In this document: positions 10,761 to 49,293 of the stretch, piece by piece
Numbering within the stretch: the stretch's first letter is position 1
Layout: the number at the start of each line of letters is the position of its first letter
NCBI GenBank assembly: GCA_016190055.1
Contig: JACPRH010000049.1
Location: forward strand, 7,820-71,819
DNA length: 64,000 bases
Source of the DNA: Nitrososphaerota archaeon
GTDB taxonomy: Archaea > Thermoproteota > Nitrososphaeria > Nitrososphaerales > JACPRH01
Reading direction: 5' to 3'
Position numbers and translations under genes: made by a program
Notes under the pieces: generated by a model
What the model was told of the DNA's origin: nothing
The model's database searches: none
What the model saw: only the letters and a program-made list of their open reading frames with translations

Positions 10761-10763
10761 TTT

Positions 10764-12073: not shown

Positions 12074-12118
12074 GGGTTAAATGCGGTCGACGGGACTTAA
12101 TCTCAATTGAGTTCAAAT
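12074..12118. repeat. att-like site 4; probable distal att of the 37-kb element
   Basis: TGCGGTCGACGGGA (12082-12095) is identical to the tRNA 3' end (49219-49232), followed by CTTAATCTCAATTGAGTTCAAAT as in sites 1-3. Confidence 0.9.
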
Positions 12119-17530: not shown

Positions 17531-17531
17531 C

Positions 17532-18404
17532 TCATCTCAGAAAGTCGTGGGAACCGATGTTGAAAGACGCAGGCGTTCCATAGCCCATGATCAGGCTGGC
17601 GACGCTCCTTGCTACAAGGGACATCATAAAAAGGAAGGATACAGGAAAGACCATGAGGCCAATGATGACTGCTGCCAGCAAGTTGCCAATTATCGAGAGC
17701 AGGAGTGCGGGCGCTGCAACATTCAGGGCTGTAGCAACGTTCAGAGGATCCTTCAGAATGTCAGCAACAAAGCTCTCTAGTTGAGTCAGCGAGTTCTGGT
17801 ATCCTATCTGCGCTTCGAGCCACAGTGCGATGGAAGGAAGTAATGGAAGAGATATCGCCGAGACTATTGAGATGCTCATCAGATATGCCCCGAGTCTTCT
17901 GCCTAGCTTGAACGGGATTGCGAAGAAGACTATACCCAATGTCCAGAACAGGAGCCATAGCTTGGAGATTTCGAGGATTACTATCTGAAGCATTGTCCAG
18001 AGGATTATCGTGTTTGTAACCCATCCTGCTGATGAGCCTAACATTCGGGCGAGCAGCTCTGCGAGCGGAGCGAAGACCACCGTTGCGTTTACAGTTGTGA
18101 TTAGGAGCATTATCGCCCCGTCTATCGCTATCAGCTGAGCCATGATCACTGCATAGGCTGTTCCGGGTTCGACTGGAATTGCGAGTGATGACGCAATCAT
18201 GGACTGTATCCAATCTGCAAGCAGCCTGACCGAGTAGACAGTTCCAATGGCGATTTCTGTGAGTACCGCATCCCACTGGAGAGAAGGAGCTTGAGACTTT
18301 AGGGAGCGCATGGGTATTGGGAGTGACTGGATAAACGCCCCGCACAGGAAAGTCATCGCTGCTAGAACGTGAACCAGGGAAACCAGTTCGGCTTCAGTTA
18401 CCAA
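17532..18404 (-). CDS. cedA: CedA-like polytopic DNA-transfer membrane protein
   Basis: N-terminal TFLCGAFIQSLPIPMRSLK...LQWDAV and C-terminal FAIPFKLGRRLGAYLMS...LPLLP resemble crenarchaeal CedA as I recall it. Confidence 0.7.
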   Translation of the reverse strand: MVTEAELVSLVHVLAAMTFLCGAFIQSLPIPMRSLKSQAPSLQWDAVLTEIAIGTVYSVRLLADWIQSMIASSLAIPVEPGTAYAVIMAQLIAIDGAIMLLITTVNATVVFAPLAELLARMLGSSAGWVTNTIILWTMLQIVILEISKLWLLFWTLGIVFFAIPFKLGRRLGAYLMSISIVSAISLPLLPSIALWLEAQIGYQNSLTQLESFVADILKDPLNVATALNVAAPALLLSIIGNLLAAVIIGLMVFPVSFLFMMSLVARSVASLIMGYGTPASFNIGSHDFLR

Positions 18405-23233: not shown

Positions 23234-23803
23234 TTGACAGGGCAATATAGTGATGAGGAATTAAGCCGACTAATCAATGACGCCAATGAACGTGCCTTTG
23301 AAGGACGTTTAGAACGTTTGCGGTTCATGTTCTCTGTGGAAGACCCTAACCCAGCTCCGGCTAGCTCGTTGTCTTATGCATACTACGAAGAAGCGAGACT
23401 CTGCTGGTTTATAGGAGCATTCGTAGCAACAATTCTAATGAGCCAACTAGCATTTGAAGAAATGTTGCGCTCACTGTTCAGAGTAGCGAATGGAGTAGGA
23501 GGCCAGATATCTACAAAGAAGAATGTAAACGATGCGGGCTTTTCTGACCTTATCAATCAAGCTAAGCATGAGGATCTGATTACGCTAGAGGAAGCCAATG
23601 CATTGCATCTGATACGTAAAAGTTACCGGAATCCATACGTTCACTCCCACGATGTGAATGTCAAACCCAACTTTTCTACGCAGGAAATGAAGATTTTTGC
23701 CCCAACACTGGTAGAAGCCAGCGTAGAAGACGAAGCTAGGACCACAATTAGAATACTGGTTAACTTGTTCCCAAAAATCTCGCGTCGCTTCTGGGGTCAA
23801 TAA
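23234..23803 (+). CDS. HEPN-like protein
   Basis: YYEEARLCWFIGAFVATILMS and an RxxxxH motif (RNPYVH). Confidence 0.6.
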   Translation: MTGQYSDEELSRLINDANERAFEGRLERLRFMFSVEDPNPAPASSLSYAYYEEARLCWFIGAFVATILMSQLAFEEMLRSLFRVANGVGGQISTKKNVNDAGFSDLINQAKHEDLITLEEANALHLIRKSYRNPYVHSHDVNVKPNFSTQEMKIFAPTLVEASVEDEARTTIRILVNLFPKISRRFWGQ

Positions 23804-24627
23804 CCTAAAGCGAGCTGATCTAGCATATCGGGCCCTTTTTCTTTGCCTACTTCTCTGTAGATTTCCAAAACCTCTTCATATGTGCCTGGTCCACCCACGA
23901 TATCCCAGAACTCCTTTCCGATCAAGACCTGATTCTTGATATCGAGATAGTTCAAGGTGAAGCTGTGCTTGTATGAGGATTTATTATCGCCATAGGGATT
24001 GTAAGCCATCGCAAAGAATGTCCTCACCTTAGGAGGACCCTGTTTCTTAATCGCGTGTATCTGAAGCATCCTATCAGTTACTTCAAGGCACTGACCTTTG
24101 TTCGGCTTCGGGCTCTTAACCTCGATGAAAATTTCGTTGCCATCCTTATCGCACAGGTATACGTCGGCGATACGGGTTCGTTCGACTGTTTTACCGTCCG
24201 ACACCTCAAGAACTCGCTGGATCATTTCTGGATAAGGTATCATTCGCTTTGAACCGAGGTCGTTGACTACGCCTTCAATTGTGCGTAGCGCCTTGAGCGA
24301 AATCTTGCCTGTTAGTCGGTGACCTCTTTCAGCTTTTGCGAAACGATCCTTCGCAATCAGTTTGGCGCACTCTTCAAACGTGGTGCCAAGCCTAGTTGAG
24401 AATGTTCGCTCAAACTCATTGATGAGCAGAATCCCATTGGGGAGCAGTGCTTCGTGAAACGGTTTGATATCTCCTGTAGATGAGAATGTCTGTGTGGGGC
24501 GCAGCTCGTTCGGCTTTAGACCGCTTGACTGCTTGTGCTCTTGTATCATCCCCTGTATGAAGCCTTCAAGGTATCCTTTGATCTTCATCCGTGTTTCTGG
24601 CTTTATCATCCTTACGCAGCTCTCCAA
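23797..24627 (-). CDS. Type II restriction endonuclease, TdeIII-like
   Basis: FERTFSTRLGTTFE, IADVY...EVKSPKPNKGQC, AMAYNPYG, GKEFWDIVGG. Confidence 0.8.
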   Translation of the reverse strand: MESCVRMIKPETRMKIKGYLEGFIQGMIQEHKQSSGLKPNELRPTQTFSSTGDIKPFHEALLPNGILLINEFERTFSTRLGTTFEECAKLIAKDRFAKAERGHRLTGKISLKALRTIEGVVNDLGSKRMIPYPEMIQRVLEVSDGKTVERTRIADVYLCDKDGNEIFIEVKSPKPNKGQCLEVTDRMLQIHAIKKQGPPKVRTFFAMAYNPYGDNKSSYKHSFTLNYLDIKNQVLIGKEFWDIVGGPGTYEEVLEIYREVGKEKGPDMLDQLALGY

Positions 24628-25826
24628 ATTAGAATCTGCTCGAAAAAGTCAGCACCTCTCCTGCCTGTCCGGCGGTTAACATTCCTCACCAAGACCTCTT
24701 CTGTCTTAAACCCAATGTTGCTCGCCATGTCTGCAAACAGCTTATCCTTGTCGTGCACAACTATAACTACGACGCCATTATCCTTGATACTGTTCCGCAC
24801 ATTCGCGAACACCTCACCGATTCCCTTCACATAATCTGCTCGCGACTTCTTCGAGTTGCCGTTAGAGGCAGCGCCTATCTCCAAATCTTTCCTGTCCGGC
24901 AGACCAAGCAGCTCATAGGCGTAGCGATGCTGTTCATGGTAATCAATTAGGCCCACGTAAGGTGGAGAGGTTACTACCGTATCAAACTGTGGAAGCTCGA
25001 CCTTACGCGAGTCGCCGCATATTACCTTCACAGGCGCATCTGTCCTTAACTTTGAGAACTCAGTTATTCTCTTGATGGTGTCCAAGCTGTAACGTGATAG
25101 GAATGTTAGCGCATCGTCAGTTGGTCTGCAAGTCCTTTGGTGCTTATGGCAGAAGTATGGTTCTGTCTGAGGCTTCTTCGGGAAATCCAAATCAAAGTGC
25201 GTGGTCAATCTAGCCGATCTAGCTGACCTTGACAAGATGATTTTCAAGACATCCGAATACTCATAATTCTCGATAAAGGAACGGTATAGTAACATCTGGA
25301 ACAATGCTTTAGACGAGAACCATTGCTTAAGGAAGGGCGTTGCTTCTTTCTCTACAAGCTCTTTCCTGATGCCCGCCCGATTTATCTCGGCAACAGTCCT
25401 GGAAAGAATGTCCTTAATTTCGGACTCTAGCTTCCGAACATCGTACTTGTCTGTCTTGACCTTGCTCAGCAGACAGTTGAACGATGAGACATCACAACCG
25501 ACCGAAGCAATTCCCAAGCTGTTCGCCTCGACAAGGGTGGTGCCTGAACCGCAAAAAGGATCTAATACAGTCTGCGGCTCAAATTTTCTAAGAAATATTT
25601 CAACCAGTTGAGGAACATATTTGCCTAGATATGGATGAAGCCTGTGAACGTGTTTGGTGCGCAGTCTCTCCGGCAGCTCTCTCTCACGCCAGTTTAGATT
25701 GATGCTAGACAGTGGGGTTGAAGGAGTTACCCAGTTGAAATTCCCAATAATCGGTTGTTTTCTTTCCATAGTCGAGCCTGCATAGTCATCCAAGGTTCTA
25801 ATTGCAGATTCTCCTCGTAACTTCAT
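24612..25826 (-). CDS. DNA methyltransferase (N4-C/N6-A type), cognate of the REase
   Basis: HPYLGK, DPFCGSGTT (motif I), then TSPPY (motif IV). Confidence 0.88.
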   Translation of the reverse strand: MKLRGESAIRTLDDYAGSTMERKQPIIGNFNWVTPSTPLSSINLNWRERELPERLRTKHVHRLHPYLGKYVPQLVEIFLRKFEPQTVLDPFCGSGTTLVEANSLGIASVGCDVSSFNCLLSKVKTDKYDVRKLESEIKDILSRTVAEINRAGIRKELVEKEATPFLKQWFSSKALFQMLLYRSFIENYEYSDVLKIILSRSARSARLTTHFDLDFPKKPQTEPYFCHKHQRTCRPTDDALTFLSRYSLDTIKRITEFSKLRTDAPVKVICGDSRKVELPQFDTVVTSPPYVGLIDYHEQHRYAYELLGLPDRKDLEIGAASNGNSKKSRADYVKGIGEVFANVRNSIKDNGVVVIVVHDKDKLFADMASNIGFKTEEVLVRNVNRRTGRRGADFFEQILIWRAA

Positions 25827-30146: not shown

Positions 30147-30380
30147 TCAGAACTGGTCCAGGCGAAGCTGAGCGCGAGGATCTGTCTCGATGTAATCCTT
30201 CATTATCTTCAGCAACCTATTGGTAAAGGAATTTCTCGTAGAACTATATTCTGAATCTAGCTTCCTGTAGAAACCGCCAATTATCTCTGTGAAGTCGTAC
30301 ATACCTCTATCTCTCGCTCCAACAGCATATTCAAACAACTGCTTCATCAATCGGTCAGCTTCCGAGTTGATTTGAAACAC
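30147..30380 (-). CDS. Small hypothetical protein
   Basis: 77 aa; overlaps the end of the MTase. Confidence 0.45.
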   Translation of the reverse strand: MFQINSEADRLMKQLFEYAVGARDRGMYDFTEIIGGFYRKLDSEYSSTRNSFTNRLLKIMKDYIETDPRAQLRLDQF

Positions 30381-31719
30381 CTCTCAGCCTCTCTGTGGCA
30401 ATCTTCACATACTCAGGATTGAGGTCGCATCCTAGAAAATGCCTACCTAGCCTCCTAGCAACAACAGCAGTGGTCCCGCTACCGATAAACGGGTCAAAAA
30501 CAACATCCCCAATCCTTGATGACGAGAGTATGGGCCTGCGCAACAATTCTTCAGGATATACTGCAAAGTGCGCGCCCTTGAAACCATGCGTATTGATGAT
30601 CCAAAAGTCTCCAGGGTTCTTACCCAACGGATGAGTAGTGTTAGGGTGACATTCCTTCCAAGCCTTCCAAGACATGGGTCCTGAACTGGATGCGTATCGT
30701 GGGTCGATGCCTTTCTCATTGGCTCTTGAGTATTTGCCTTCAATCACATCTCCCGGGTTCTTGCCTTTTGGGTTCCAAATTCTAGCAGGATTCTCTCTGT
30801 GCACGTTTGGCGGTGGTGTCATCCCCCCGGTCTTCATAACTCCGTCAGCCTTCGGTCTCGTAAAGTCTTGGACTGTAGTGAGAACATCCCCCGGATTCTT
30901 TCCTAGCGGATGATAGTCCCTGTTGCGAAATTGTTTTCTCGTTCTTCTGGCTCTCGGGCTTGCATACTGCTCTGAATTTTCTGAGAGCTTCCCTTCGTAG
31001 ATATCACCCGGATTTTTGCCCAGCGGGTTCAATCCTTTCTTCGCAGAATTCTCCATAACCTGCGCTGGAGATTGATGCATGCCTCGCGGATCTGTCTTGT
31101 GTTTGAGCGGATCGTAATGCTCCTTGTTCTCTATGTATCTCTTCATTCGCTCGACTGTGACAGACTTGTGTGGAACTCGGATTGCGTCGAGATTGTAGTA
31201 ATACTTCCTGCTCTTCACGAAATGAAAGACAAACTCATACGTATTGGTGAGCCTGTCCTTGACCGAGCATGGCATCGCGTTAGGCTTGTGCCAGATTATG
31301 CAGTTGCGCAGAATCCATTCATCATCGATGAGAGTCAGCGCAACCCTCCACGGAACGCCTAGAAGCGATTTGGCAACGATACCCCTATCCTTGTGTCCGC
31401 CAAACTTCTTGAAACCATCCAACCTGTTCTTCGAATGCCACTTCTCATATTGTCCTCCGCTACCGGTTGATGAGTAGGAGTCGCCCAAGTTGAGATAGAA
31501 ACTGCCATCACTCTTCAGAACACGCTTGAGCTCATGGAATAGTTGAACAAGTTTCTTCACATACTCGCGGAAGTCAGGCTCTAAACCAATCTGACCATCA
31601 ACGCCATAATCCCGCAAGCCGTAGTAAGGCGGAGAGGTAACACAGAGATTGATATATTCATCCGGCAGAGACTTCAGGAACTCCAACGCATCGTTGCAAA
31701 CAATCCTGTCAACCTCTAT
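30355..31719 (-). CDS. Orphan DNA methyltransferase (beta class, N4-C/N6-A)
   Basis: TSPPY at the N-terminus; HFAVYP and DPFIGSGTT at the C-terminus; frame extends upstream of the track start (IEVDRIVCNDALEF). Confidence 0.88.
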   Translation of the reverse strand: MEVDRIVCNDALEFLKSLPDEYINLCVTSPPYYGLRDYGVDGQIGLEPDFREYVKKLVQLFHELKRVLKSDGSFYLNLGDSYSSTGSGGQYEKWHSKNRLDGFKKFGGHKDRGIVAKSLLGVPWRVALTLIDDEWILRNCIIWHKPNAMPCSVKDRLTNTYEFVFHFVKSRKYYYNLDAIRVPHKSVTVERMKRYIENKEHYDPLKHKTDPRGMHQSPAQVMENSAKKGLNPLGKNPGDIYEGKLSENSEQYASPRARRTRKQFRNRDYHPLGKNPGDVLTTVQDFTRPKADGVMKTGGMTPPPNVHRENPARIWNPKGKNPGDVIEGKYSRANEKGIDPRYASSSGPMSWKAWKECHPNTTHPLGKNPGDFWIINTHGFKGAHFAVYPEELLRRPILSSSRIGDVVFDPFIGSGTTAVVARRLGRHFLGCDLNPEYVKIATERLRGVSNQLGS

Positions 31720-31723
31720 CTAA

Positions 31724-32014
31724 TCACCCGCGCTCCTTCCTTATTTTCTCCCTCGCTTCGCTGTAAGTGCAAGGCTTCCAAGCACGATCTAATTCAGCGC
31801 CATTCTCTAGGATTTCTTCAATGCTCACGTAGCCCCACTCGGCATTCTGATCGTCATTCAAATTTGCATACCCAAAGGCGAGATTCTCCTTCCTGTCAAG
31901 CTCGGCAATTAGCCAGTAGAATCCTACGTAACTGAGCTGATACCGTTGATGGATAATCTTCCTCTCGAACGGCACGCTTTCAGACTCATACAATTTTGGA
32001 ATTGAATCATCCAC
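31724..32014 (-). CDS. DUF2958-like protein (common on mobile elements)
   Basis: IPKLYESE...WLIAELD...AFGYANL...AEWGYVSIEEI. Confidence 0.7.
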   Translation of the reverse strand: MDDSIPKLYESESVPFERKIIHQRYQLSYVGFYWLIAELDRKENLAFGYANLNDDQNAEWGYVSIEEILENGAELDRAWKPCTYSEAREKIRKERG

Positions 32015-34631: not shown

Positions 34632-36542
34632 TCAACTGCATAAACCCGGAGCCTCCCAGCACAAACAGCACAAAACCCTCGGAGAACCGTGCTCCCTGGA
34701 CACATTCTTTACGAGCTCTTCATCGTCAGAACAGACTATGACCTTCGAGAAATCGTTCAGTGCAATCCAGATATTCCCTAGTATGTCCGAGTTTCCGGTC
34801 TCTACGTTGATAGCCGTGCGAGTAGTCTGGATGTCAGGGCCGACTCTCGAAGTAATGCACTCTATCCCCTTGTTTCTCAGCTGCTCAGAAATCCAATGGA
34901 CATAGAACTCATGCTTGATTCCGGGGTTCGCTCCTTTCTTCTGATACAGTATCCTGGGCTTTCCTTTCCCAAGCTTCACCTTCACAGCTTCCACTTCGCC
35001 TCTTCTGCTTAACCCGTTCACGACTCTGGAGTATCGCCTGTCATCCCAGCCTAGCAGATGCCTCCTTTCACGAGTCGGGATAAATGGCTCTTTGCTAATG
35101 CTTTCTAGGAACAGTCGCTCCTCATTATCATCCAAGTGTCGAGGCGCATCAATAGAAGGCGGCATTTCGAACTTTACTTTAGGCGTGTATCTTTCCAACT
35201 CTTGCGCGCTTAACTGACTCAGAAACATGTTCTGAGAAGTCATGATAAACGGCTCAAGCCCCTGAGTCTTGACTATCGCCTGCCTTTGCTTGAGGCTGGT
35301 CAGTTCCTGAGCAAAATGGTCGACCGAGACATAAGAGTTGAAACCAAAACTCCGCGCGATGAGGTCGATGTCCTTCGCATCCTGCAACTTGAACGTGAAG
35401 ACGTTCTGACAATTAGCTACAATATCCGGCTCTAAATTTGAAGGCCGTTGAGTGACGACTGCCAGTGATTGCCCTCGTTTTCTCAACCTTGCCGCAAATT
35501 CTGTGGTCGCCCAAGTATCAGTCACCAGCAGCTTGCGTAGAATCTTTGGTGCTAGTAGTTGCGCTTCATCTGCTATGAACAGGTTGGATATCCGCTCGGT
35601 CGGCTCGCGGTGCAGTGCTTGCTTGAGGTATGCTACTGCGATCGTGTTGTATATCAGCCTCAGCTCGGTTCCGTATGCGACCTTTGCTTCAAGGGGATGA
35701 AGATCAATCAGTACATTCCGGTCATCAAACTTTTCGAGATTGAAGCTGGATGTCTCGGTGTAGAAGATCTCGCTGAGCGCCGGATTGCTCCTGTATGGTT
35801 CGAGCCTTACAAGAAGCGCAGTTTTAGTCTTATCTAGTGAGTTGAGTCTAAACGGCAGATTATGCTCTTCGTAATTTGTCACGTTGTCAATCAGCGTGGG
35901 TATGCTTGTACTTTCCCTGATGCACTGGTCGAGGACATAGTTCATCTGCGGCGAGAGGTCTTGGTATTCTACTTCAATTCCGCGAAAGATTATCTCCTTC
36001 AGTAATGCACGGACAAGCCCATAGTCGTTGAGGTCGTAGGGGTTTATTTTGAGATTCGTATCTGTCGAGTAATATTCTGTCTTATGTTGCAGCCTTGGGA
36101 GAATGTTCTTCCATTCGCCTTCGACATCTAGGATCAACAGTTTGATTCCATTGTTCTCAGCCTTGATTGCTAGGTTCATCGCTTCACGTGTCTTGCCGCC
36201 ACCGGTAGCGCCGTAGAATGCGAAATGAAACCCGAATTGCGAGAGCGGCAAGTGAAACGGATTGCCATCACTCATCGTTCCCAGAAGTATTCCATCTCTA
36301 ACTTGGTTTGGTTCGGGCGAGTGCAGGAAATTTGGAAGAGGACTCTGGCAGTAGTCGCACAAACCTCTGAGCATCTTGGTCATGCTTCCACATGTGATAC
36401 ACACCCAGTATTCGTTCAATACCATCTGACACACCCTTCGCACAGTTTCATCCGTGTCATCACGCCTTGACGCCATACTTCTTTCACAGTGATGTGCAGC
36501 ATGCAGAAGATACGCAAGCAACCCTCGCAGATTCGCTGACAC
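34632..36542 (-). CDS. HerA/FtsK/VirB4-like ATPase with C-terminal HTH plus nuclease-like region
   Basis: HFAFYGATGGGKT, ILDVEGEW, FIADEAQ, LRKRG, TQRPS; probable start at the Met near 36476. Confidence 0.8.
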   Translation of the reverse strand: MSANLRGLLAYLLHAAHHCERSMASRRDDTDETVRRVCQMVLNEYWVCITCGSMTKMLRGLCDYCQSPLPNFLHSPEPNQVRDGILLGTMSDGNPFHLPLSQFGFHFAFYGATGGGKTREAMNLAIKAENNGIKLLILDVEGEWKNILPRLQHKTEYYSTDTNLKINPYDLNDYGLVRALLKEIIFRGIEVEYQDLSPQMNYVLDQCIRESTSIPTLIDNVTNYEEHNLPFRLNSLDKTKTALLVRLEPYRSNPALSEIFYTETSSFNLEKFDDRNVLIDLHPLEAKVAYGTELRLIYNTIAVAYLKQALHREPTERISNLFIADEAQLLAPKILRKLLVTDTWATTEFAARLRKRGQSLAVVTQRPSNLEPDIVANCQNVFTFKLQDAKDIDLIARSFGFNSYVSVDHFAQELTSLKQRQAIVKTQGLEPFIMTSQNMFLSQLSAQELERYTPKVKFEMPPSIDAPRHLDDNEERLFLESISKEPFIPTRERRHLLGWDDRRYSRVVNGLSRRGEVEAVKVKLGKGKPRILYQKKGANPGIKHEFYVHWISEQLRNKGIECITSRVGPDIQTTRTAINVETGNSDILGNIWIALNDFSKVIVCSDDEELVKNVSREHGSPRVLCCLCWEAPGLCS

Positions 36543-36640
36543 TGTGGGCAGGTGGAGTTATCACACGTTCCGCATCGACCGAGCAATCTCTCTTTCTCAG
36601 TCGTTGCGCCGCATACCTTGCATCTCAGCAGTCCTCGCAT
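36416..36640 (-). CDS. Small Cys-rich zinc-finger protein
   Basis: Multiple CxxC pairs in 74 aa. Confidence 0.6.
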   Translation of the reverse strand: MRGLLRCKVCGATTEKERLLGRCGTCDNSTCPQCQRICEGCLRIFCMLHITVKEVWRQGVMTRMKLCEGCVRWY

Positions 36641-36780
36641 TGCCTCACGAATCCTTGGTAGCAGTTCGGACAGAGCAGGTATCCGTTAATCTGTGCCAGA
36701 CATTCAGAGCAGCATCTCTTTCCGCATCTCGTGCATTTCCCAGCGCCGATGTTCCTGACGAATGTGTGACCGCACTGCAA
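36625..36780 (-). CDS. Small Cys-rich zinc-finger protein
   Basis: Not in the track; manual translation LQCGHTFVRNIGAGKCTRCGKRCCSECLAQINGYLLCPNCYQGFVRQCEDC. Confidence 0.55.
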   Translation of the reverse strand: MQCGHTFVRNIGAGKCTRCGKRCCSECLAQINGYLLCPNCYQGFVRQCEDC

Positions 36781-36791
36781 TGTGGGATAGT

Positions 36792-37238
36792 CTATCTCGC
36801 TGATTGTATCACCACTTTCTCTTCACCGTTCCATCCAATCTCGGTCCCGAATCTGAACAGGTATCGCCCTACGAGGCGCCTATCAGCATAGACCTGCTCG
36901 CACAGTGCCTTCAGCGAACGGTCCAAGCCGAACTTTTTCGAATACAGATGTGTTAAAGCGGCTACTCCTTCCAGTCTCCTCGCCCTGAACAGCAGCTCCC
37001 GGTTGTCAAGGTAGAATTGGAGGACCGATTCCCCAACATATCTCGGCAGATGTGACTTGTCGCAGACACGCTCTATCGTCCTATACCATTCTGCGTCGCA
37101 TCGCCTGATCGGATTGTTTAGATTCCTGAGGAATGCGTACCTCGTCCTTGTCCCGTCGTCAAGCCTCCTTCCCTTCCCGTCATACTCCGGGCTGAAGGTT
37201 GAGCCGAGAGTGAATTGCGAGTAATGTGCAATACCTAT
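36792..37238 (-). CDS. Truncated TFB/TFIIB-like protein (linker plus a single cyclin repeat)
   Basis: Not in the track (no ATG/GTG/TTG near its start). 148-aa open frame: LGSTFSPEYDGKGRRLD...RYAFLRNLN...TIERVCDKSHLPRYVGE...FRARRLEGVAA...RSLKALCE...RRLVGRY. Confidence 0.7.
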   Translation of the reverse strand: MGIAHYSQFTLGSTFSPEYDGKGRRLDDGTRTRYAFLRNLNNPIRRCDAEWYRTIERVCDKSHLPRYVGESVLQFYLDNRELLFRARRLEGVAALTHLYSKKFGLDRSLKALCEQVYADRRLVGRYLFRFGTEIGWNGEEKVVIQSAR

Positions 37239-37363
37239 TCCTCCCCGTCAACCACTGCTCCGCACTTTTCGCACTTCAGCCCAAACTCGCTGCGCGTGAT
37301 TCCCCACGCGTCCTCGCCTGTGTTGCTGCGGTATTCCCTGCATCTTGGGCAGTAGCCTCTCAT
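37235..37363 (-). CDS. TFB-type zinc-ribbon peptide (42 aa)
   Basis: MRGYCPRCREYRSNTGEDAWGITRSEFGLKCEKCGAVVDGEE; overlaps the TFB core frame by 4 bp. Confidence 0.6.
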   Translation of the reverse strand: MRGYCPRCREYRSNTGEDAWGITRSEFGLKCEKCGAVVDGEE

Positions 37364-37441
37364 TCAGAAGATTATGCAGAAACAAGGTAGAGTAGGTTAC
37401 GAGTGAAGGATGCCGATAGTGCGTCAGGTAAACGTAATCTG

Positions 37442-37870
37442 CTAAGGTTGTAGATTTATAAGAACTGGAACAGGAATATTATAGTTGAAGTAGTATAGGA
37501 GCATATTGCTTAGAAAACCGAAGATAATAATTGATAGACCAAGAAGTACAGAAGCGATCCTCAGGTCTTTCGCCACTTTCTCAAGAGTAATTACTTTATT
37601 GGACTCCCGATATATTATAGTGTCTTTATGCTTGTCTAGAATGTAGATGACCCCTAAAAACAACATTACAAGAGATGTCTTAACGAGCGCGCCTTCAGGA
37701 GTCAGATTCATCCAAGGGCGTGTTTCATGGCAAGTAGGGCAGTCTGGTTTACTTAATGCGATTATGGTGGATTGAATATCTAGGTATAATGCGAAGCTGA
37801 GAAAGCCAAATAGTGCGCGAATGTCTGCATTACTAATCTTTTGAAGTGTGTTTAACAGTATTGTTTTCAA
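37442..37870 (-). CDS. Membrane protein
   Basis: Three hydrophobic segments. Confidence 0.5.
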   Translation of the reverse strand: MKTILLNTLQKISNADIRALFGFLSFALYLDIQSTIIALSKPDCPTCHETRPWMNLTPEGALVKTSLVMLFLGVIYILDKHKDTIIYRESNKVITLEKVAKDLRIASVLLGLSIIIFGFLSNMLLYYFNYNIPVPVLINLQP

Positions 37871-38212
37871 TTATCTAAATCCGACATTGAAACGTAGTCT
37901 GCGGAACTTAAATAATGTTTCTGGGCGATTTTATCGGAATCTTACATACGCACTTTCCATAATAGTTGAATCACAATCTCAAACAATGAACTCGAAAAAT
38001 CTCAAGGAGCTATTCTCAGAAAAGATCGACGCCGATGTTCTCAACAGGATGCCTGAATGGTTCAAGCGATTGAGAGAAGCATACCTACGCAAAACCATCG
38101 CCTAATCGGAACATTATACCTAAATTGGTAATCTTTTTCATGAAATTATCACTTCAAGCTTTTCTAACGTGGAAAGATTTAAATCGATCCCTTGTAGAAC
38201 ATCCAAGATAAT

Positions 38213-39905: not shown

Positions 39906-41078
39906 TCACTTCTCAATCAAAGCAAGTAACTTCTCAAGCTTCTCCGGGTCTTCGGTAAGCCTGTTGAGCAGTTCATCTATTTTCGATCTAGCCCTGTCCA
40001 TCTGCATTACGGTCGTATTATCCAGTGGCAATCCGCAGTTGTTGCAGAACTTGGAGTCGGCACTGCTCATAGAATGGCATTTGATGCATTCCTTGTGAGT
40101 AAGTTGCTGCTCCTCTTTCTTGGCTTCGATACCATTCAGCATGCGGTGAGCGTCGTCGATGTCTTCTCCCGCTAGCTTGATGTATACTGCTGGCATTCGC
40201 GAGCCTTGCCTCCATCCTGCAACTGCGCACAGCAACGAGTATGGGAGGACTTTGCTCGCTGGCGTCAATACTGAATGTCTGGTCAAGTAAGGGAAGAACC
40301 TTTTCTTTATTCCAGCCCTCTCAGCGCATTCCCTCAACATTGTTCTGATGGTATCGTAACTCATCACCCGATAATTGTCTCTGCGGTCTAGTGTAACCCA
40401 CACTGGTGCTTCAGGATTGTCACGCAAAGGATGCAGGTTGAGCCAGTTCGCAAGCAATGATGCAGAAGATATCACCCGAGCCGTGTCCTGCCCTACCTTC
40501 CCATCCACACGCAATCTCGCCCCCAGTTTATCAAACTCGATATCCTTGATCTGCAATCCCATTATCTCACCCAGTCTTCGTTTAGACTCTGCGAAGACAA
40601 GTATGAACGCCCTGTCCCGCATGTTGTGCGCAGCCTGAGCGATACTCGTGATTTCTTCGGCTGTCAGCAGGTCTTTCTTCTGCAACTTGTTCGCAGGCTT
40701 TTTCCCTTCCCTTATCCACTTGACTTCGGGCGGGTGTTCACCACTGTCACAGCCTTTCAGCCACTGGAAGAATTTCTTAAAGACCATCTTGTAATCGCGT
40801 TTGGTCCAGGCAGAAACATCGCGCTGCTCGATATTTGCCACGAGTTCTACTATATCATCCTTGGTCAACTCGTTAAACGGCTTCTTCGTTATCCTCGAAA
40901 TCAGTTTGAGAGTGTTGAGGCATTTCAGGATTCTTGCAGGGCTGATTCCGTCAGCCACACGTCGCCTGTGGTACTTTACCAGAACTTCCGCATCTTCTCT
41001 TCTGAGCTCTCCCTGTATCGACTGGAGTTCCTTCTCTATCTTCTCCGGATAGCGGTAGATTTGTGCTGCAAGGCTCAT
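39906..41078 (-). CDS. Second tyrosine recombinase/integrase with C-terminal zinc ribbon
   Basis: ESKRRLGEI, DGKVG, PYLTRHS, AGW, VYIKL; CIKC...FCNNCG. Confidence 0.85.
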   Translation of the reverse strand: MSLAAQIYRYPEKIEKELQSIQGELRREDAEVLVKYHRRRVADGISPARILKCLNTLKLISRITKKPFNELTKDDIVELVANIEQRDVSAWTKRDYKMVFKKFFQWLKGCDSGEHPPEVKWIREGKKPANKLQKKDLLTAEEITSIAQAAHNMRDRAFILVFAESKRRLGEIMGLQIKDIEFDKLGARLRVDGKVGQDTARVISSASLLANWLNLHPLRDNPEAPVWVTLDRRDNYRVMSYDTIRTMLRECAERAGIKKRFFPYLTRHSVLTPASKVLPYSLLCAVAGWRQGSRMPAVYIKLAGEDIDDAHRMLNGIEAKKEEQQLTHKECIKCHSMSSADSKFCNNCGLPLDNTTVMQMDRARSKIDELLNRLTEDPEKLEKLLALIEK

Positions 41079-43466: not shown

Positions 43467-44147
43467 TCAGTGGTTCTCAGTCGTCTCATTGTCGTTTCTT
43501 TTTCCACGGTTGCATTCGTAGCAAAGAGTCTGTAAATTATTGAGATTGTTGTTCCCACCTTTAGAAATAGGTATTTTGTGGTCAACTTCCAACTTGGCAC
43601 CGATGCCAGAGCGACCGCATAAAACGCACGTGAACTGGTCTCTCTTTAGCACAAGAAACCTTCTTCTTATCGAGATTTCCTTTCTATATGGTTTAGATTT
43701 GCCATCTTCATTGAGGTTCTCGTTTTGTTCTTGCGTGTCTTTTTTGTCTACGGAATTGTACGCAAGAATCAACGCCTTTTTCCAGCTTCCAAACCTTCTC
43801 CTGTATGTATCCTGACAGTAGGGGAAGCCATACCCTTTAAGATCGGAAGCAAAAGGTCTTCGCCCTTCTTTTTCAAGGGTTGTTGTCCATAGTTCAATAA
43901 CGGCGTTTATCAGTTCCTCATCAGTTGTGTTGACGCGTCTGCTTGGTTTCAAGCCTGCTTGCAAAAGCGCGTCGGAAAAGGAACCAAATTTTTTGAAATA
44001 AGTTGTCCATCCAGCTCGTCCATACTTGTCTATGTCAGACTTTGTGACAGACCTGTCTCCTACAATTTTTTGGATTCGTTTTAATTCCTCGATAAGGGAT
44101 TGCTTGTCATAATCTTCCAAAAAGTCGATTTGAAATTTCTCAGGCAC
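43467..44147 (-). CDS. HNH endonuclease with two N-terminal homing-endonuclease-associated repeats
   Basis: KFGSFSDAL and RFGSWKKAL repeats; RDQFTCVLCG...EVDHKIP...GG...NLQTLCYECNRGK. Confidence 0.85.
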   Translation of the reverse strand: MPEKFQIDFLEDYDKQSLIEELKRIQKIVGDRSVTKSDIDKYGRAGWTTYFKKFGSFSDALLQAGLKPSRRVNTTDEELINAVIELWTTTLEKEGRRPFASDLKGYGFPYCQDTYRRRFGSWKKALILAYNSVDKKDTQEQNENLNEDGKSKPYRKEISIRRRFLVLKRDQFTCVLCGRSGIGAKLEVDHKIPISKGGNNNLNNLQTLCYECNRGKRNDNETTENH

Positions 44148-44242
44148 ACTGTAGTGTTGTGTATGAATGTATATATTGTCTTCTTGATATTATTCGAAGA
44201 ACAAATAGTCTATATACGTTGGTAGGGCTGAATATTTGATAT

Positions 44243-44668
44243 ATGCCCTTAGAAACAGTCCTGTCGCTGTTAAGCCTTGTCGGTGTAGGCGGAATAGTAG
44301 CCGCCTTTTTCACGTATTTTTGGCAAAAGAGGAAAGACATTCTACTGAAAGAAAATGAGTTGAAAGAGAAGAGATATCTTTGCATCCTTCTTCTAATGTA
44401 TGCTCACATTGACCCAAAAGCGTTTGAAAGCCTGAAACCATACAGGCCAGACATAAAAAGCAAGGACGACTTAAAAAGAGAGTTGAATACAGAATGGGTA
44501 AACTCTTGGATATTTGCAAGTGATGACACAATAAAATCATTCAAAAAATTCCTTAATGAACCGACAGAGAATAGCTTCGCTGAAACTGTTCTCGCTATGC
44601 GTAAAGAATTATGGGGCAAAAAATCAAATCTACCTAGATCAACATTCTCGCTAGAGGCATTACACTGA
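44243..44668 (+). CDS. Hypothetical protein with an N-terminal TM helix
   Basis: 141 aa. Confidence 0.6.
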   Translation: MPLETVLSLLSLVGVGGIVAAFFTYFWQKRKDILLKENELKEKRYLCILLLMYAHIDPKAFESLKPYRPDIKSKDDLKRELNTEWVNSWIFASDDTIKSFKKFLNEPTENSFAETVLAMRKELWGKKSNLPRSTFSLEALH

Positions 44669-44762
44669 CCTACTGATTGATCTTCGGCTGGCCGATACCA
44701 AACATCTCTAGCGGAACTACACTCCCGTTAGCAATAAGCTACTCCAACCTCAACTCTTCATA

Positions 44763-45749
44763 GTGAAAGACCCGATTCTCGTTGATGAAAACTCGCTGCA
44801 CGAGGCGTTTATTCCCACGAACATGCCATTCAGGGAAGGGCACCTAAAGGAGATATTGCAGCATCTCAAGCCTGCGCTGCACAAACAGGACGCAAGGAAT
44901 GTCCTGCTGACAGGCCCGACAGGCACGGGCAAAACCACACTCGCCAAATGGATTCTCGCCGAGCACTTCCCACGCAGGCACGCCTATGTCAACTGCTTGA
45001 ACACGAGAAGCGAGCATAAGATATTGGAGAGCATTCTGATCCAGCTCGGACATGTCATTCCTGAAAACAAGCCTACTGATTATCTGGCACAGAAGTTTGA
45101 GAAGAAGGTAGAGAAGGGAACCATAGTCTGCTTGGATGAAGTGGACCAGATTAAGGATGAGCGCATTCTTGCAACCTTGTCATCCCAGCTGAGCGGCTTG
45201 GTGTTGATAACCAATCGGGGGAGGTTCTTCGATGGTCTGGATAGTAGGATTAGTTCGAGGTTGTTTGCTGCGGACATAGAATTCAGGAAATACGCTTCTT
45301 CAGAGCTTATGGAAATATTAGAAGAGCGTGCAGGTTGTGCGTTGAGACCCGATTCCATTACTCCAAGAATTCTAGAACTAATCTCAATGTGGGCTAATGG
45401 AGATGCAAGGGTCGCTCTGCAAACATTGAAAGCTAGCGCCAAACTGGCTGAAGCAAAGCAGCGGGAATGTATAACGCTAGATGAAGTGAAGGAGGCGTTT
45501 GGGTCGGCTAGAATCTCAAAGCGTGAGTACCTGAAATCAAAGCTGAATGAGCATCAGAAAGTTCTCCTGAACATCATTGAGAGGCGAAAGAATGTTCCGT
45601 CAGGTGAATTATGGCAGGAATATCAGGGTATGGTTAGTGAGCCTTTGGGAGAGCGAGCCTATCGAAACCAAATGGATGATTTAGTGAAGGTGGGACTTGT
45701 GAAGGACAGTGGAGATGGAAGATGGAAGAGATATGAGGTAAACGGATAA
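44763..45749 (+). CDS. cdc6: Cdc6/Orc1-family AAA+ ATPase with winged helix
   Basis: PFREGHL, GPTGTGKT, YVNC, LDEVD, LDSRISSR, GDARVAL; C-terminal wH. Confidence 0.85.
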   Translation: MKDPILVDENSLHEAFIPTNMPFREGHLKEILQHLKPALHKQDARNVLLTGPTGTGKTTLAKWILAEHFPRRHAYVNCLNTRSEHKILESILIQLGHVIPENKPTDYLAQKFEKKVEKGTIVCLDEVDQIKDERILATLSSQLSGLVLITNRGRFFDGLDSRISSRLFAADIEFRKYASSELMEILEERAGCALRPDSITPRILELISMWANGDARVALQTLKASAKLAEAKQRECITLDEVKEAFGSARISKREYLKSKLNEHQKVLLNIIERRKNVPSGELWQEYQGMVSEPLGERAYRNQMDDLVKVGLVKDSGDGRWKRYEVNG

Positions 45750-45753
45750 CATC

Positions 45754-47787
45754 CTATTTTGTCTTGGTTTTTTCTGGTAATGCAGTTTCATCAGTTTCCG
45801 GCGATGCGGTTATTCTCTTGAATATCTCTCTGATGTCTCCGGAGATTTCGGTTTCTCTCATGTTAAGTGCAATTTGCGCACCTAGATCCCCATTATAACC
45901 TTGTATACCTCCTCTTTTTAGCAGTAAGTCCAAAACAACCTTTCTATCCTTCTTCGTTTTGTAGGATTCAAGAAAACTTTCTATTTCCTTCTCTGAGAGA
46001 TTAAAGTTAGGAAACGCTCGTAGAATCGCGATGGGAACGAGTAGGTAGTCTTCGATAGAGTCAGCTTTCAACGTGTTTATGTTTTCTTCTCGGAGGTCAA
46101 GTTGTTTTACGAGTTTGTCCTTAACATCTTTCAGTTTTCCGTCTTCTGTATCTCCATCGAAGATTACAAATGGTGTTACCTTTATCCTGCGCGAACCTAA
46201 TATTCTCGCATTCGCATAGTATTCCATATTGTTCCAGCCCTCGGTGTCAATGAAGCCTATATTTCCGGAACTCTTAAAGCGCCTAGCCCAAGCATTGAAT
46301 ATTTTTACGTCGTCTTGTCCTTCGACAAAAACTACAGTATCGTAATCCAGAATGTCTGCGGGTTTTATCCCCAATTCATCAATGATTCTGTTTACATTTC
46401 CCTCATTAACTTGTTCCACAGTAGTCCTTCCTTCCTCATCCTTGGATACAATAAATACGCCCGCAAGATCGAGTTTAGACGCAAAAATCGGGCTGTGACT
46501 TGAAACCATAACCTGCGTTTTGCTGGATAGTTCTCGAAGGTAAGATAATAGCAGGCGTTGAAGCTTAGGGTGTAAATGAATCTCAGGTTCTTCAACAATT
46601 AGAATCGCGTTGACATCAAATGTTTCTTTTACAATCCCCATTATTGACTGCTCTCCTCCACCTATTTCCGATGGTTGTAATCCTAGGTCGCCCTCCTTCA
46701 GAAGGACTTGGTTTGGATTCGGCTCGACTCTGCGATTCAACAACTGCTGAAGATATGCCCTGTACTGTTCCCAACTTTTCTCTATCGGCCTTCGTCTATC
46801 GATAGACATTGCAGTGATATTTTGGAGAACGGTAGGTTCTACAAGAGAAACCCTTTGGCCAGCTGATGTCTTCACGTCTCTAGCCGCCGGAATTAACTTA
46901 AATTTGGTTCGTATCTGAGTTATTCCAGAAATGATCTTTTGTAAAGTTTCAGGCGATAAGATCCCTAATATTGGAACCTCAGAAGCTGAAGGTGAGGCGA
47001 TTAGTATTTTCTCCTTTTTCCCCCACTCTTGATAGTTTTGACCAGCATTCTCTGTTGAAGATTCTATCAAGCCTGCACTTACCAATTGGTCTATTTGGGG
47101 TGTACTTGTAAACGCCTTCTTGCGCTTAGTATCTACAAGTAACCTATCACCGCCAATATTTTCCTGTGAATTACCTTGAGTGAAGAAATACATCTTATAG
47201 TCCTTAAAGGATTCGGGCGCTAAGTAGTGAGATAACTTGTCAGGAGAAATCAAAACATCGTTCTCGACAAGCGGGATGTCACCCCATTGCAACAGTTCGG
47301 TCATCCAGCTTCCTTGTGCAGAAAGACTTCGTTTTATCTTGAGTTTATGCAGACTTGCATTCACTTTTTCATCTAAAGTATCAAAATACGACTTGTCCAA
47401 AGGAAGATATTGTCTTAATTCCGTCTTATCCATGACGAGGTCAATCTCAAACTTTATTGGCGATTCAGCTTCACGCCTGAACCACAACGAATCTGACAAG
47501 CCTGCTGAAGCTCCACCAGCGATTGGGTTAAAATCAACGAAGAATCTGTAAAGCGCTTCAAAAATCAACGATTTGCCCTGACCATTTGCACCTATCAAAA
47601 CCGAAAATGCTTGTGGCTCAAACGTCAAATTCTTCAAACTCGCGTAACCATCGATGGAAACAAAAGTTATTCGCATAATCGAGTATTTTTGAATTGAAAG
47701 ATTTAAGTATATCGGAAAATCTAATTTTCTAGTCAAGTTCAGAGATATATCCCTAAAATACGAACCGCGTCTCGTCTTTAGAAACAT
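45754..47787 (-). CDS. OLD-family ATP-dependent nuclease (ABC ATPase plus TOPRIM)
   Basis: GANGQGKS, EEPEIHLHP, SSHSP, VFVEGQDD, IFDGD, SIEDYL; probable start at the Met near 47676. Confidence 0.85.
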   Translation of the reverse strand: MFLKTRRGSYFRDISLNLTRKLDFPIYLNLSIQKYSIMRITFVSIDGYASLKNLTFEPQAFSVLIGANGQGKSLIFEALYRFFVDFNPIAGGASAGLSDSLWFRREAESPIKFEIDLVMDKTELRQYLPLDKSYFDTLDEKVNASLHKLKIKRSLSAQGSWMTELLQWGDIPLVENDVLISPDKLSHYLAPESFKDYKMYFFTQGNSQENIGGDRLLVDTKRKKAFTSTPQIDQLVSAGLIESSTENAGQNYQEWGKKEKILIASPSASEVPILGILSPETLQKIISGITQIRTKFKLIPAARDVKTSAGQRVSLVEPTVLQNITAMSIDRRRPIEKSWEQYRAYLQQLLNRRVEPNPNQVLLKEGDLGLQPSEIGGGEQSIMGIVKETFDVNAILIVEEPEIHLHPKLQRLLLSYLRELSSKTQVMVSSHSPIFASKLDLAGVFIVSKDEEGRTTVEQVNEGNVNRIIDELGIKPADILDYDTVVFVEGQDDVKIFNAWARRFKSSGNIGFIDTEGWNNMEYYANARILGSRRIKVTPFVIFDGDTEDGKLKDVKDKLVKQLDLREENINTLKADSIEDYLLVPIAILRAFPNFNLSEKEIESFLESYKTKKDRKVVLDLLLKRGGIQGYNGDLGAQIALNMRETEISGDIREIFKRITASPETDETALPEKTKTK

Positions 47788-47890: not shown

Positions 47891-49165
47891 TTATGTTGGC
47901 AGTTTCACTATCGCTTCCCCGTCAGGCAGTTGGGCGACGTATTCCCATCCCTGACCGATGAAATCCTTTACCTGCGCCACAGGGACTACTTTCTGCCGGT
48001 TTCCGTTGTTTGTCAATGCGCCCAGCAGCCTTTCCCTAACCTTCTGTTGTACTTCTTCGTCGGCCATACTATCAAGGTTCATTTGTTCAATTTCCTCTTT
48101 CTTGAAACCTGCGATCATTAGCAATTGTTCTTTGAAGGCATGCTTGATCTTGTCATCTATCGGTTCTGATTTGGTGGTCTGAAGCAACTGCTCGCATCTC
48201 TTGTACGACGCACGCATCTCTTCGATCATATCTGGCGGGAGCCTTCCCTTATTCGTCGAATACCTAGCCTCAATGTCGCCCTTGTGTCCCATGAAGAACT
48301 GTCTCCATGGATGAGAAAGCAGGCCCTTGCTCTCACCTATGTCAAATGCTGTTGCACAGTATGAACGCAGAACATACGGCCTCCAGGAGTAACCCGCCTT
48401 CGTGATGGCGCGCTTGACATACGAAGTGAGTTTGGTTGTGCGCAGGAAGTTCAGCTTGTTGGGTCTGAGATGCCCGACCAGAGGGCTCTCACTGTTCAGC
48501 TCCTCTCCTTCTCTTATCCTTGCTTCTAAGTATTCCTTGAGATATTGGCATCCCTCTTCTGGCAGGAAGGTAAAGTATTGATGCCTTGCTTTGCTCAAGG
48601 TCTTCCTGACGGTAATCAGCAGTGGAGTTTTCTCTATGACGATCTTGCCTCCTTCAATGCGTAGCTCAGGGACATCCTTCAGCCTAATTCCATCATTTCC
48701 CAAGTAGTTGCCGATACTCTCAGGCCTCAAACCTGAAAAACCCATCAGCGACGCTGTCACTCTGCTCCTATTGTCACAGTGCCTCAAAATGGAGGCGAGC
48801 TCCTCCTTGCTCGGAACAATTTCATCCACGTAATCTGCAACAGGGAGCTTGATCTTGCTCTCAATCTTCAACCCATAGTGACCCAACCAAGACTTCACGG
48901 TCACCAAGTTGTTCTTTACCTGAGTTGGCTTGTCTCCCCTGACAAACGATTGGTCAACAAAATCCAAGATAAACTTCTCAAAGCCCTCAGGATCAGCCCG
49001 CTTCATCTCAATCAAGTCCTGCGGAGTTTTTCCGACAAGATCACAGAACCGACCCAACCGTCTGAGCCGCTCCTCAGCAGTTATCACGCTCCCCCGTGCC
49101 ACGTTGTTGAACCAGCGCTGGATGTCAGGTTGGTTCAAAAGATGCTTATGCCGACTTTTAGCCAC
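47891..49165 (-). CDS. Tyrosine integrase of the tRNA-Gly element
   Basis: SGLRPE (R), SKARH (K), RPYVLRSY, FMGH, ARYS (Y); intact and adjacent to the tRNA. Confidence 0.9.
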   Translation of the reverse strand: MAKSRHKHLLNQPDIQRWFNNVARGSVITAEERLRRLGRFCDLVGKTPQDLIEMKRADPEGFEKFILDFVDQSFVRGDKPTQVKNNLVTVKSWLGHYGLKIESKIKLPVADYVDEIVPSKEELASILRHCDNRSRVTASLMGFSGLRPESIGNYLGNDGIRLKDVPELRIEGGKIVIEKTPLLITVRKTLSKARHQYFTFLPEEGCQYLKEYLEARIREGEELNSESPLVGHLRPNKLNFLRTTKLTSYVKRAITKAGYSWRPYVLRSYCATAFDIGESKGLLSHPWRQFFMGHKGDIEARYSTNKGRLPPDMIEEMRASYKRCEQLLQTTKSEPIDDKIKHAFKEQLLMIAGFKKEEIEQMNLDSMADEEVQQKVRERLLGALTNNGNRQKVVPVAQVKDFIGQGWEYVAQLPDGEAIVKLPT

Positions 49166-49218
49166 CGTCCCGCCTCTGCCACCTAAGAGGCTCTGCGGTA
49201 TTTATACTTAGTTGAGAG

Positions 49219-49293
49219 TGCGGTCGACGGGATTTGAACCCGTGTTCTCAGCTTGGAGGGCTGACGTCCTGGACCAGGCTGGACGACGACCGC
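49219..49293 (-). tRNA. tRNA-Gly(TCC), no intron, CCA not encoded
   Basis: Cloverleaf: acceptor GCGGTCG/CGACCGC-A, D stem GTCC/GGAC, anticodon stem TCAGC/GCTGA with loop CCTCCAA, T arm ACGGG-TTCAAAT-CCCGT. Confidence 0.92.

Follow-up and report, generated by a model that had tools for sequence, protein, structure and literature searches.

The window, a stretch of 64,000 nucleotides from a genome of the Nitrososphaerales, contains two small overlapping reading frames on the reverse strand which raise the question whether they represent one split transcription factor or two genes, and what a TFB reduced to its middle part may do in the cell. A preliminary description had regarded them as a single, truncated factor of the TFB3 architecture. 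The best explanation of our results is that they are two independent genes, here termed ZnR and mini-TFB, in an operon of small zinc proteins belonging to an integrated element of the Cdc6/integrase/HerA type in Nitrososphaerales (Table 1).

Table 1. Positions of the ZnR/mini-TFB operon and of the associated features of the element in the window.
Feature	Position	Strand	Remarks
Small conserved downstream gene	31724..32014	-	DUF2958-like (weak); in 23 related loci
HerA/DUF87-type ATPase	34632..36425	-	N-terminal Zn finger; 45-64% identical in seven related elements
ZnF2	36416..36640	-	74 aa, Cys-rich
ZnF1	36625..36804	-	59 aa, Cys-rich; overlaps the stop of mini-TFB; GGTGAT precedes the ATC start, in-frame ATG/GTG/TTG absent
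Mini-TFB	36792..37232	-	146 aa from the putative start ATT 37232 (148 aa from the alternative ATA 37238); B-linker strand and helix, cyclin repeat 1, short tail; without ribbon, B-reader and cyclin 2
ZnR	37235..37363	-	42-aa zinc-ribbon gene, CxxC-x22-CxxC (CPRC..CEKC); core gene of the element family
GGAGG, Shine-Dalgarno-like motif	37240..37244	-	7 nt before ATT 37232; only 1 nt from ATA 37238
26-nt motif	37393..37418	-	29 nt upstream of the ZnR ATG; candidate promoter or operator
Tyrosine integrase of the element	39906..41078	-	
Orc1/Cdc6-like initiator of the element	44763..45749	+	
Second integrase and tRNA-Gly(TCC)	47891..49293	-	tRNA 3' end recurs at 12082-12102

Two reading frames and their junction

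Both frames were found where the preliminary description had placed them, the 42-aa frame at 37235-37363(-) and the second one, with 151 codons from stop to stop, at 36792-37247(-). The 3' end of ZnR and the 5' end of the second frame have the four nucleotides ATAG in common, and the second frame, which lacks any in-frame ATG, GTG or TTG at its 5' end, offers only ATA and ATT behind GGGGAGG, in agreement with that description. The frame offset is genuine and not an assembly or sequencing error, since contigs of X1, X2 and X5 keep the same junction. Among the matches listed, drawn from four of five runs, contigs of X1 and X2 (possibly from the source sample) cross it with 0 differences, and the X5 contig from another study, which covers 36713-37418, differs in 46 other letters in 709 and has gaps only at 36813-36815; the metagenome runs with matching sequence derive from groundwater. 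The suspicion of an indel at 37235-37250 was therefore not borne out. Further X1 and X2 contigs of low depth match either side of window positions 37233-37323, not inside, and possibly represent another relative with ZnR beside mini-TFB; joints at such likeness may stem from other organisms.

For the second frame either a non-canonical start codon or a -1 frameshift had been demanded, and only the former agrees with the sequence. No slippery heptamer of the type X XXY YYZ was detected in the 12-nt window available for a -1 shift, so that a frameshift joining ZnR and the core was rejected. The distance of the GGAGG motif to the ATT agrees with the 7-8 nt preceding the isoleucine-codon starts of ZnF1. 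The start is likely the ATT 37232, and there are strong indications that mini-TFB is translated separately from this codon, coupled to the termination of ZnR.

Isoleucine codons recur as apparent starts in this operon. ZnF1 has no in-frame ATG, GTG or TTG in eight of 30 loci, and in seven of these eight, the window included, ATC or ATA is located 7-8 nt behind a Shine-Dalgarno (SD) match of 5-7 nt. Loci of the ZnF1 operon with such isoleucine codons are the window (36625-36804), L050, L051, L052, L098, L104, L108 and L134. The full-length TFB in genome G128 has ATC as its first codon, and the ATPase of G023 shows an apparent ATT start. In many loci the stop codon of ZnR doubles as part of the SD of the next gene (TAGGTG/TGAGGTG). 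Genome-wide SD enrichment in the host was present before ATG, TTG and GTG only, and none was seen before ATA, ATT or ATC; AUH initiation as a general habit of the host was rejected on this ground. The SD consensus used here is the common one, as the assembly yielded no 16S anti-SD motif. Host candidates for a start at ATA, ATT, ATC or CTG behind an SD are located at G000:C8:106111(-), C30:11157(+), C21:59510(-), C49:34001(+) and C42:16295(+). One such gene, presumably QueC-like, begins at ATA, 84 codons ahead of the first ATG, GTG or TTG.

In the loci L084 and L178 the ZnR stop is followed by an in-frame GTG and by an ATT, whose distance from the stop exceeds that in the window by 7 nt. The window junction being 7 nt shorter from the stop to the first isoleucine codon accounts for both the missing GTG and the frame offset. 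For two truncated relatives of mini-TFB, P0002 and P0003, the called protein begins with a Met at the position of this GTG, and for another, P0001 (96%), with an internal Met. The lineage of the window has thus lost the GTG, whereas its ATT persists behind a new SD; this may be taken either for a start of low dose or for early decay.

Regarding the zinc ribbon, the frame and its CPRC..CEKC motif were confirmed, and its role as the ribbon of the adjacent TFB was not. The survey of the slot behind ZnR comprised 128 ZnR loci, namely the window, seven elements in genomes and the 120 metagenome loci among the matches listed, 40 of which extend only about 300 bases to each side. A TFB follows next after ZnR in four loci (window, L050 in G128, L084 and L178), and ZnF1 follows without a TFB in 27. 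Another layout was found in 28 loci, often with a different ATPase gene (checked for L071); 51 loci are short without a TFB match and 18 are too short to judge. L096, whose TFB is located 1.5 kb downstream and shows 39% identity to a host TFB, was not counted. The ZnR orthologue of G128 consists of 42 aa (62% identical), has its own stop and precedes a TFB of 271 aa that includes a ribbon and the two cyclins, and no TFB lies between ZnR and ZnF1 in six other genomes. L084 likewise encodes a full TFB with its own ribbon behind a separate ZnR, and the TFB of L178 begins with a ribbon as far as sequenced. Because a TFB lies downstream in only 4 of 128 loci and the full TFBs there bring their own ribbon, ZnR has to be considered an independent gene, and it is shown to be a core gene of the operon.

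The same follows from the Cys spacing, which amounts to 20-22 in ZnR (115 loci) versus mostly 14-15 in TFB ribbons, and from the profiles of ZnR and the element TFBs, which gave no alignment (hhalign, probability 0.1%); ZnR as the ribbon of the TFB was rejected on these two grounds. The TFIIB ribbon family PF08271 weakly matches 15 of 54 ZnR members (best E 6.5e-5) and other generic ribbon families match equally, so a distant kinship with the TFIIB ribbon is conceivable. An AF2 model of ZnR is all-beta (pLDDT 81); the fold search with this model was uninformative, with no match above Z 3.2, and the ZnR sequence was not found in the protein collection.

Taken together, ZnR and mini-TFB are almost certainly separate genes. 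That they form one TFB3-like protein by way of a -1 frameshift is extremely improbable: although the offset of -1 with its 4-nt overlap recurs in the X5 strain and, probably, at the locus of P0012, where, judged from the protein only, the called N-terminus corresponds in the shifted frame to a ZnR-like end and a stop, the shift window has no slippery heptamer, an identical ATAG junction links ZnR to ZnF1 in L098, ZnR stands alone in most loci and also precedes ribbon-bearing TFBs, no fused ZnR-core protein was found among relatives of 83-265 aa or among 1.84 billion representatives, and the core falls among element TFBs in the tree. A ribbon-encoding frame next to a truncated TFB is not necessarily the part that the latter has lost.

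A variable slot in the operon of an integrated element

The operon has the order ZnR, mini-TFB, ZnF1, ZnF2 and HerA/DUF87-type ATPase, with a tyrosine integrase and an Orc1/Cdc6 gene nearby. Close homologues of the ATPase were detected in nine of 401 genomes of the order, the own genome included, and none outside the order among 401 genomes of the phylum. Seven of the nine preserve the order ZnR-ZnF1-ZnF2-ATPase, and integrase and Cdc6 are syntenic in G128, G023, G294, G114 and G183. A Pfam search with the C-terminal part of the ATPase (window 34632-35120) gave no match; judged by eye it resembles a winged helix with a PD-(D/E)XK-like nuclease behind it, an arrangement of relaxase-like proteins. 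Neither the ZnR pattern nor the mini-TFB core was found in the viral contigs searched, and the plasmid collection contained only one weak match to the ATPase.

The slot behind ZnR is shown to be a variable cargo slot, which may be empty or hold a full TFB, a methyltransferase, small ORFs (L063, L065, L104, L108) or mini-TFB. The methyltransferase-like label of the slot ORF in L132 and L137 is our assumption from motifs. In the closest relative, L098 (82-86% DNA identity), mini-TFB is cleanly absent and ZnR is linked to ZnF1 via the same GGAATAG junction. Since ATAG flanks the extra DNA of the window at both ends and the acidic residue before the first Ile of ZnF1 is missing in L098, the comparison suggests that mini-TFB was lost there by deletion, the direction being our reading of the sequences. 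The 26-nt motif upstream of ZnR recurs in L098, where it precedes by 28 nt an unassigned gene X of about 120 aa, and less similar versions are present in L050-L052; located at the expected promoter position, it is not TATA-like. Gene X is cleanly missing in the window and present in relatives, and the homology of the X5 contig ends at 37418.

A second element subfamily (L061, L069, L071, L072, L079-L082, L085, L095, L097, L110, L114, L115, L119, L133, L138) has a long ORF behind ZnR, and a W-rich motif at the N-terminus is common to these ORFs; that of L071 comprises 549 aa with a C-terminal DUF87-like ATPase. The 3' part of a small ORF at 37848-38105(+) recurs in L098, L134, L052, L108, in many contigs of the same runs and at G000:C35:6571 beside the TBP locus. 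A second copy of the ATPase at G000:C55:22010-24547 is internally deleted and consists of pieces 86-96% identical; contigs with a similar internal skip have a depth like that of the intact form.

The element is part of a larger island, probably bounded by the tRNA-Gly and the copy of its 3' end at 12082-12102. This tRNA-Gly(TCC) adjoins the integrase at 47891-49165. A 61-nt repeat, whose core matches the tRNA-Gly(TCC) 3' end (49219-49239), was found in four copies (893-953, 1689-1749, 5590-5650, 12058-12118), which may be tandem att-like sites bounding units of 0.8, 3.9, 6.5 and 37 kb, that is, either accreted islands or a cassette-like array. Between two of these repeats lies a polyhydroxyalkanoate synthesis cluster (6200-11849; two PhaE, PhaC, thiolase, two reductases), which is for this reason probably mobile. 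The region 13319-18404 encodes a 913-aa DUF87/TraG-like ATPase (14604-17345) flanked by ORFs of 433 and 290 aa, for which there was neither a Pfam match nor a counterpart in related loci as far as these reach, and is a possible second transfer or defence module. Defence-like cargo was detected at 23797-25826, 30355-31686 and 43467-47787; besides a TdeIII-type restriction enzyme with its methylase it includes an OLD-like ATPase/TOPRIM protein, an HNH nuclease and another methylase, of the N6/N4 type.

The element resembles the cryptic integrated elements described for thaumarchaea, e.g. NitAQ6f-E1, with which it has the integrase, Cdc6/Orc1, restriction-modification cargo and tRNA-side integration in common (PMC6563490). 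As in this class, a tyrosine integrase and a replication initiator are present and no viral or full conjugation signature was detected. The ZnR-ZnF1-ZnF2-HerA operon does not appear in that description of these elements, and the supplementary annotation may include a member. Likewise, searches of the open-access literature revealed neither a natural TFB made of linker and cyclin 1 nor an account of this operon.

A truncated TFB and its relatives

The second frame is derived from a TFB, and its likeness is beyond chance. Mini-TFB shares 29% identity over 114 aa with one of the four host TFBs, G000:C29 (pairwise BLASTP, E 1e-11), and a phmmer search with mini-TFB detects it at E 1.3e-7 among 38,699 host ORFs. 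The proposed search against TFIIB families was positive for the NCBIfam profile PRK00423 (E 8e-4, profile 124-206, far below the family cut-off) and negative for Pfam, where the core matched no family, PF00382 included. The P. woesei TFB sequence matched weakly (E 0.08), and in the ESM Atlas the first matches were TFIIB-repeat clusters (0.90). AlphaFold predicts the helical core with confidence (pLDDT 85-95 at residues 51-130), and the top rows of the Foldseek search with this model were all TFIIB, TFB or Brf (best E 4e-3, none reaching E 0.001), with an rmsd of 2.0 A to P. woesei TFB. Beyond helix 5 the model shows a disordered tail, for which homologues have a different sequence or none. The match spans the B-linker and cyclin repeat 1, and no cyclin 2 is present in the frame, as the preliminary description had maintained. 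Mini-TFB thus has the cyclin-1 core preceded by a B-linker that is typical of the TFB/TFIIB family and lacks the Zn ribbon and the second cyclin repeat, both of which are present in the full-length members of its clade. The predicted complex of mini-TFB residues 1-135 (13-row alignment) with the host TBP (5-row alignment) had a score of 0.00 and was given no weight either way, and the codon score of the core against the host model was about 0.

In searches of 5.8 billion proteins and 1.84 billion representatives, plus cluster look-ups, four further proteins were detected that begin and end like mini-TFB, namely P0001 (96%) as well as P0002, P0003 and P0012 (62-67%). The five truncated proteins fall in three lineages about 60-67% identical, and in all five the TFB homology stops right after helix 5; most distant relatives have two cyclins and some a ribbon. 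A tree of 49 rows was built from the linker and cyclin 1, from which P0010, being a repeat protein, and P0004/P0011, being fragments from the P0012 cluster, were left out. Therein the window, P0001, P0002, P0003 and P0012 form one clade (98/96) inside a 14-row clade of element TFBs (96/99). The host TFBs and six short crenarchaeal TFBs (L181-L186) are located outside, the latter on long, unreliable branches and with unconfirmed TFB3 identity, and the phylogenetic comparison with TFB3 thus did not favour the earlier assignment. The stem is long (1.38) and the TBP-facing motifs have drifted from the cellular consensus.

TFB homologues on mobile elements as such are known: TFIIB homologues were described on thaumarchaeal ICEs, in Asgard viruses and other mobile elements, and in rudiviruses (PMC6563490; 10.1101/2021.07.29.453957). 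The full-length clade members L050, L084 and P0008 are of the same kind. Those on ICEs are located mostly upstream of ParB, and truncation is not mentioned in the available parts of these two sources, whereas mini-TFB occupies a slot in a Zn-protein/HerA operon and lacks both ends. Thaumarchaeal ICEs are characterised by a VirB4/VirD4 pair, VirB6 or pilins and a TFIIB upstream of ParB (PMC6563490). There is no ParB beside mini-TFB; the wider island contains the 913-aa DUF87/TraG-like ATPase mentioned above.

Several observations are signs that the truncated form is under purifying selection. Root-to-tip distances of 0.74-1.19 in truncated members versus 1.1-1.5 in full-length members give no sign of acceleration. 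The substitutions are more conservative than in a neutral simulation, in which only 1, 1 and 29 of 600 runs reach the values of P0002, P0003 and P0012. They are also unevenly distributed, with identities across the three lineages of 10/12 in the N-terminal B-linker segment, 13/16 in helix 5, the best-conserved long segment, and 4/17 in two middle segments. P0001 differs in 4 of 103 residues versus 13.7 +/- 2 expected at the 6.5% DNA divergence of X5 (0/5000 runs), assuming an X5-like strain of origin, with which P0001 has a one-codon insertion in common; with a mean BLOSUM of -0.5 these four differences are non-conservative. The result for site conservation was weak (Spearman p 0.025, Fisher p 0.18), and the chance that a neutral pair at 63% identity is still stop-free amounts to 8%. 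As all these tests use proteins from called, stop-free collections, they are biased towards intact and conserved sequences. The shared ends, the lack of acceleration and the conservative substitutions argue against pseudogene decay of the homologues, which had been named as a possible objection. On the basis of these comparisons mini-TFB is probably a real protein under selection, and we infer with some firmness that it has been kept by selection since a single truncation.

The main alternative is that mini-TFB may be a relic, in which the full TFB of the element was trimmed by deletions, lost its GTG start in the window and is barely or not translated, on the way to an empty slot as in L098. 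This would account for the in-frame GTG of L084 and L178, the Met of P0002 and P0003 at this position and its removal by the shorter junction of the window, for the absence of the gene in L098 with ATAG at both ends of the extra DNA, for the additional loss of gene X in the window and for the many elements without any TFB. Nevertheless we regard a relic as unlikely, given the identical, domain-precise ends in three lineages 60-67% identical, the unaccelerated rate with conservative and non-uniform substitutions, the few amino-acid changes relative to a close strain (P0001) and the SD at the operon-typical distance from the ATT.

Mini-TFB is dispensable, since L098 lacks it and only one of 128 ZnR loci has the truncated form. 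TFBs of the element clade were detected in two of 401 genomes of the order (G000, G128) and in none of 62 genomes of one other class; borderline matches in three of 381 genomes of a further class were read as ordinary full TFBs. A search for fragments of 30-63 aa found nothing. A first metagenome scan for DNA of the truncated homologues gave no result either, and a 20-residue match in the corresponding scan of genome contigs was judged spurious. For P0003 and for P0009, which has two cyclins, the longest contig comprises 11,398 bases in both cases, and they possibly belong to one element carrying both forms.

Possible roles of mini-TFB

In a complete TFB the first cyclin repeat touches TBP and downstream DNA. 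According to PMC7289017, docking on RNA polymerase is the role of the ribbon and BRE reading that of cyclin 2, and the B-linker extends into the polymerase. Mini-TFB would thus retain the parts directed to the polymerase clamp and rudder (B-linker) and to TBP and the downstream promoter DNA (cyclin 1), and lack those for polymerase docking (ribbon) and BRE reading (cyclin 2). Because the latter two are missing it should be unable to recruit polymerase, and no productive initiation complex would arise from it, but the sites of TFB could still be occupied.

By analogy with known inhibitors we tentatively propose mini-TFB to be a competitive decoy that lowers TFB-dependent initiation, a reading whose chances we place a little short of even; provided that mini-TFB is a real, selected protein, this mechanism would be somewhat favoured. 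It would compete with TFB at RNA polymerase or TBP, its target being either host promoters or promoters served by the full-length TFB of the element, and the weak start codon would keep its dose low.

The decoy is placed first because of these domain roles and of two precedents, RIP and a dominant-negative, ribbon-less TFB2. ORF145/RIP of ATV blocks TFB by mimicking the B-linker strand and helix on RNA polymerase (PMC8448823), and would be an analogue in the way it works, a small mobile-element protein at the B-linker site. However, RIP is a different protein that mimics TFB (compared with ATV ORF131 in PMC8448823), whereas mini-TFB is a true TFB fragment for which inhibition is presumed. The engineered TFB2 delta-N of S. 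acidocaldarius, without the polymerase-recruiting N-terminus, is reported to be dominant negative (10.64898/2026.09.06.749720). In contrast to mini-TFB, which also lacks cyclin 2, it keeps both cyclins and still binds promoters, and this speaks against the decoy.

The preliminary description had seen an element-encoded regulator, either an activator of the transfer genes or an inhibitor of the host TFB. A truncated, element-borne TFB is indeed present. An activator of the transfer genes is little supported, since mini-TFB has no polymerase-recruiting ribbon and the operon ATPase is only HerA/DUF87-like, matching CedD (E 4e-15) with 55 bits and thus far below the cut-off of 600; the inhibitor of host TFB fits the anatomy of mini-TFB best. 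A more specific version, which we consider rather doubtful, is a natural anti-TFB, i.e. a captured TFB cut to exactly B-linker and cyclin 1, set in its dose by an AUU start and competing with basal TFB for the polymerase. Together with a full-length TFB of the same element (possibly P0003 with P0009) it might constitute a switch, like a sigma/anti-sigma or a dominant-negative isoform pair.

Sulfolobales TFB3 activates the ced and ups genes after DNA damage. It is a chromosomal, damage-induced activator whose four-Cys ribbon belongs to the same polypeptide and is essential, and whose C-terminus has a coiled coil (PMC6101594, PMC6101591). Mini-TFB resembles it as a short TFB paralogue without B-finger/B-reader and C-terminal HTH cyclin, and hence without BRE reading. 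In contrast to TFB3, its frame has no ribbon in the same polypeptide, and it is element-borne in Nitrososphaerales and belongs to a separate clade. As it thus differs in both ribbon and clade, mini-TFB is, by sequence, not a TFB3; the coiled-coil motif of TFB3 might map on its helix 5.

A positive co-factor in trans could nevertheless be imagined, with mini-TFB activating element promoters in a TFB3-like manner together with a full TFB of the host or the element, or with free ZnR as a stand-in for the ribbon. TFB3 is described to work in trans with a canonical TFB (PMC7289017, PMC6101591), the weak PF08271 matches of some ZnR members (15/54, best E 6.5e-5) would suit a ribbon stand-in, P0003 and the two-cyclin P0009 are possibly on the same 11,398-base contig, and the motif located where a promoter would be expected does not resemble TATA. 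However, this role is distinctly unlikely, as TFB3 requires its ribbon covalently (PMC6101594), ZnR mostly has no TFB near it and is present next to ribbon-bearing TFBs as well, and the profiles of ZnR and element TFBs cannot be aligned while generic ribbon families match ZnR equally.

It is highly improbable that the cyclin-1 fold was repurposed outside initiation, e.g. for binding element DNA or the HerA-type ATPase via the basic, conserved helices 4-5, since, despite the conservation of helix 5 (13/16), the drifted TBP-facing motifs and the stem of 1.38, the B-linker segment with its known role at RNA polymerase is equally conserved (10/12) and the operon works without the gene in most elements.

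The analysis exposes a widespread element family, with at least 120 metagenome loci and its ATPase in nine of 401 genomes of the order, in which small Zn proteins are encoded by a hidden operon with a cargo slot of variable content, and in which ATC, ATA and ATT starts recur that gene callers miss. If mini-TFB is expressed and inhibitory, it would represent, after the viral RIP, a second route for archaeal mobile elements to attack the TFB-polymerase interface, in this case via a true TFB fragment, and would provide a natural minimal probe of B-linker and cyclin 1 without ribbon and cyclin 2.
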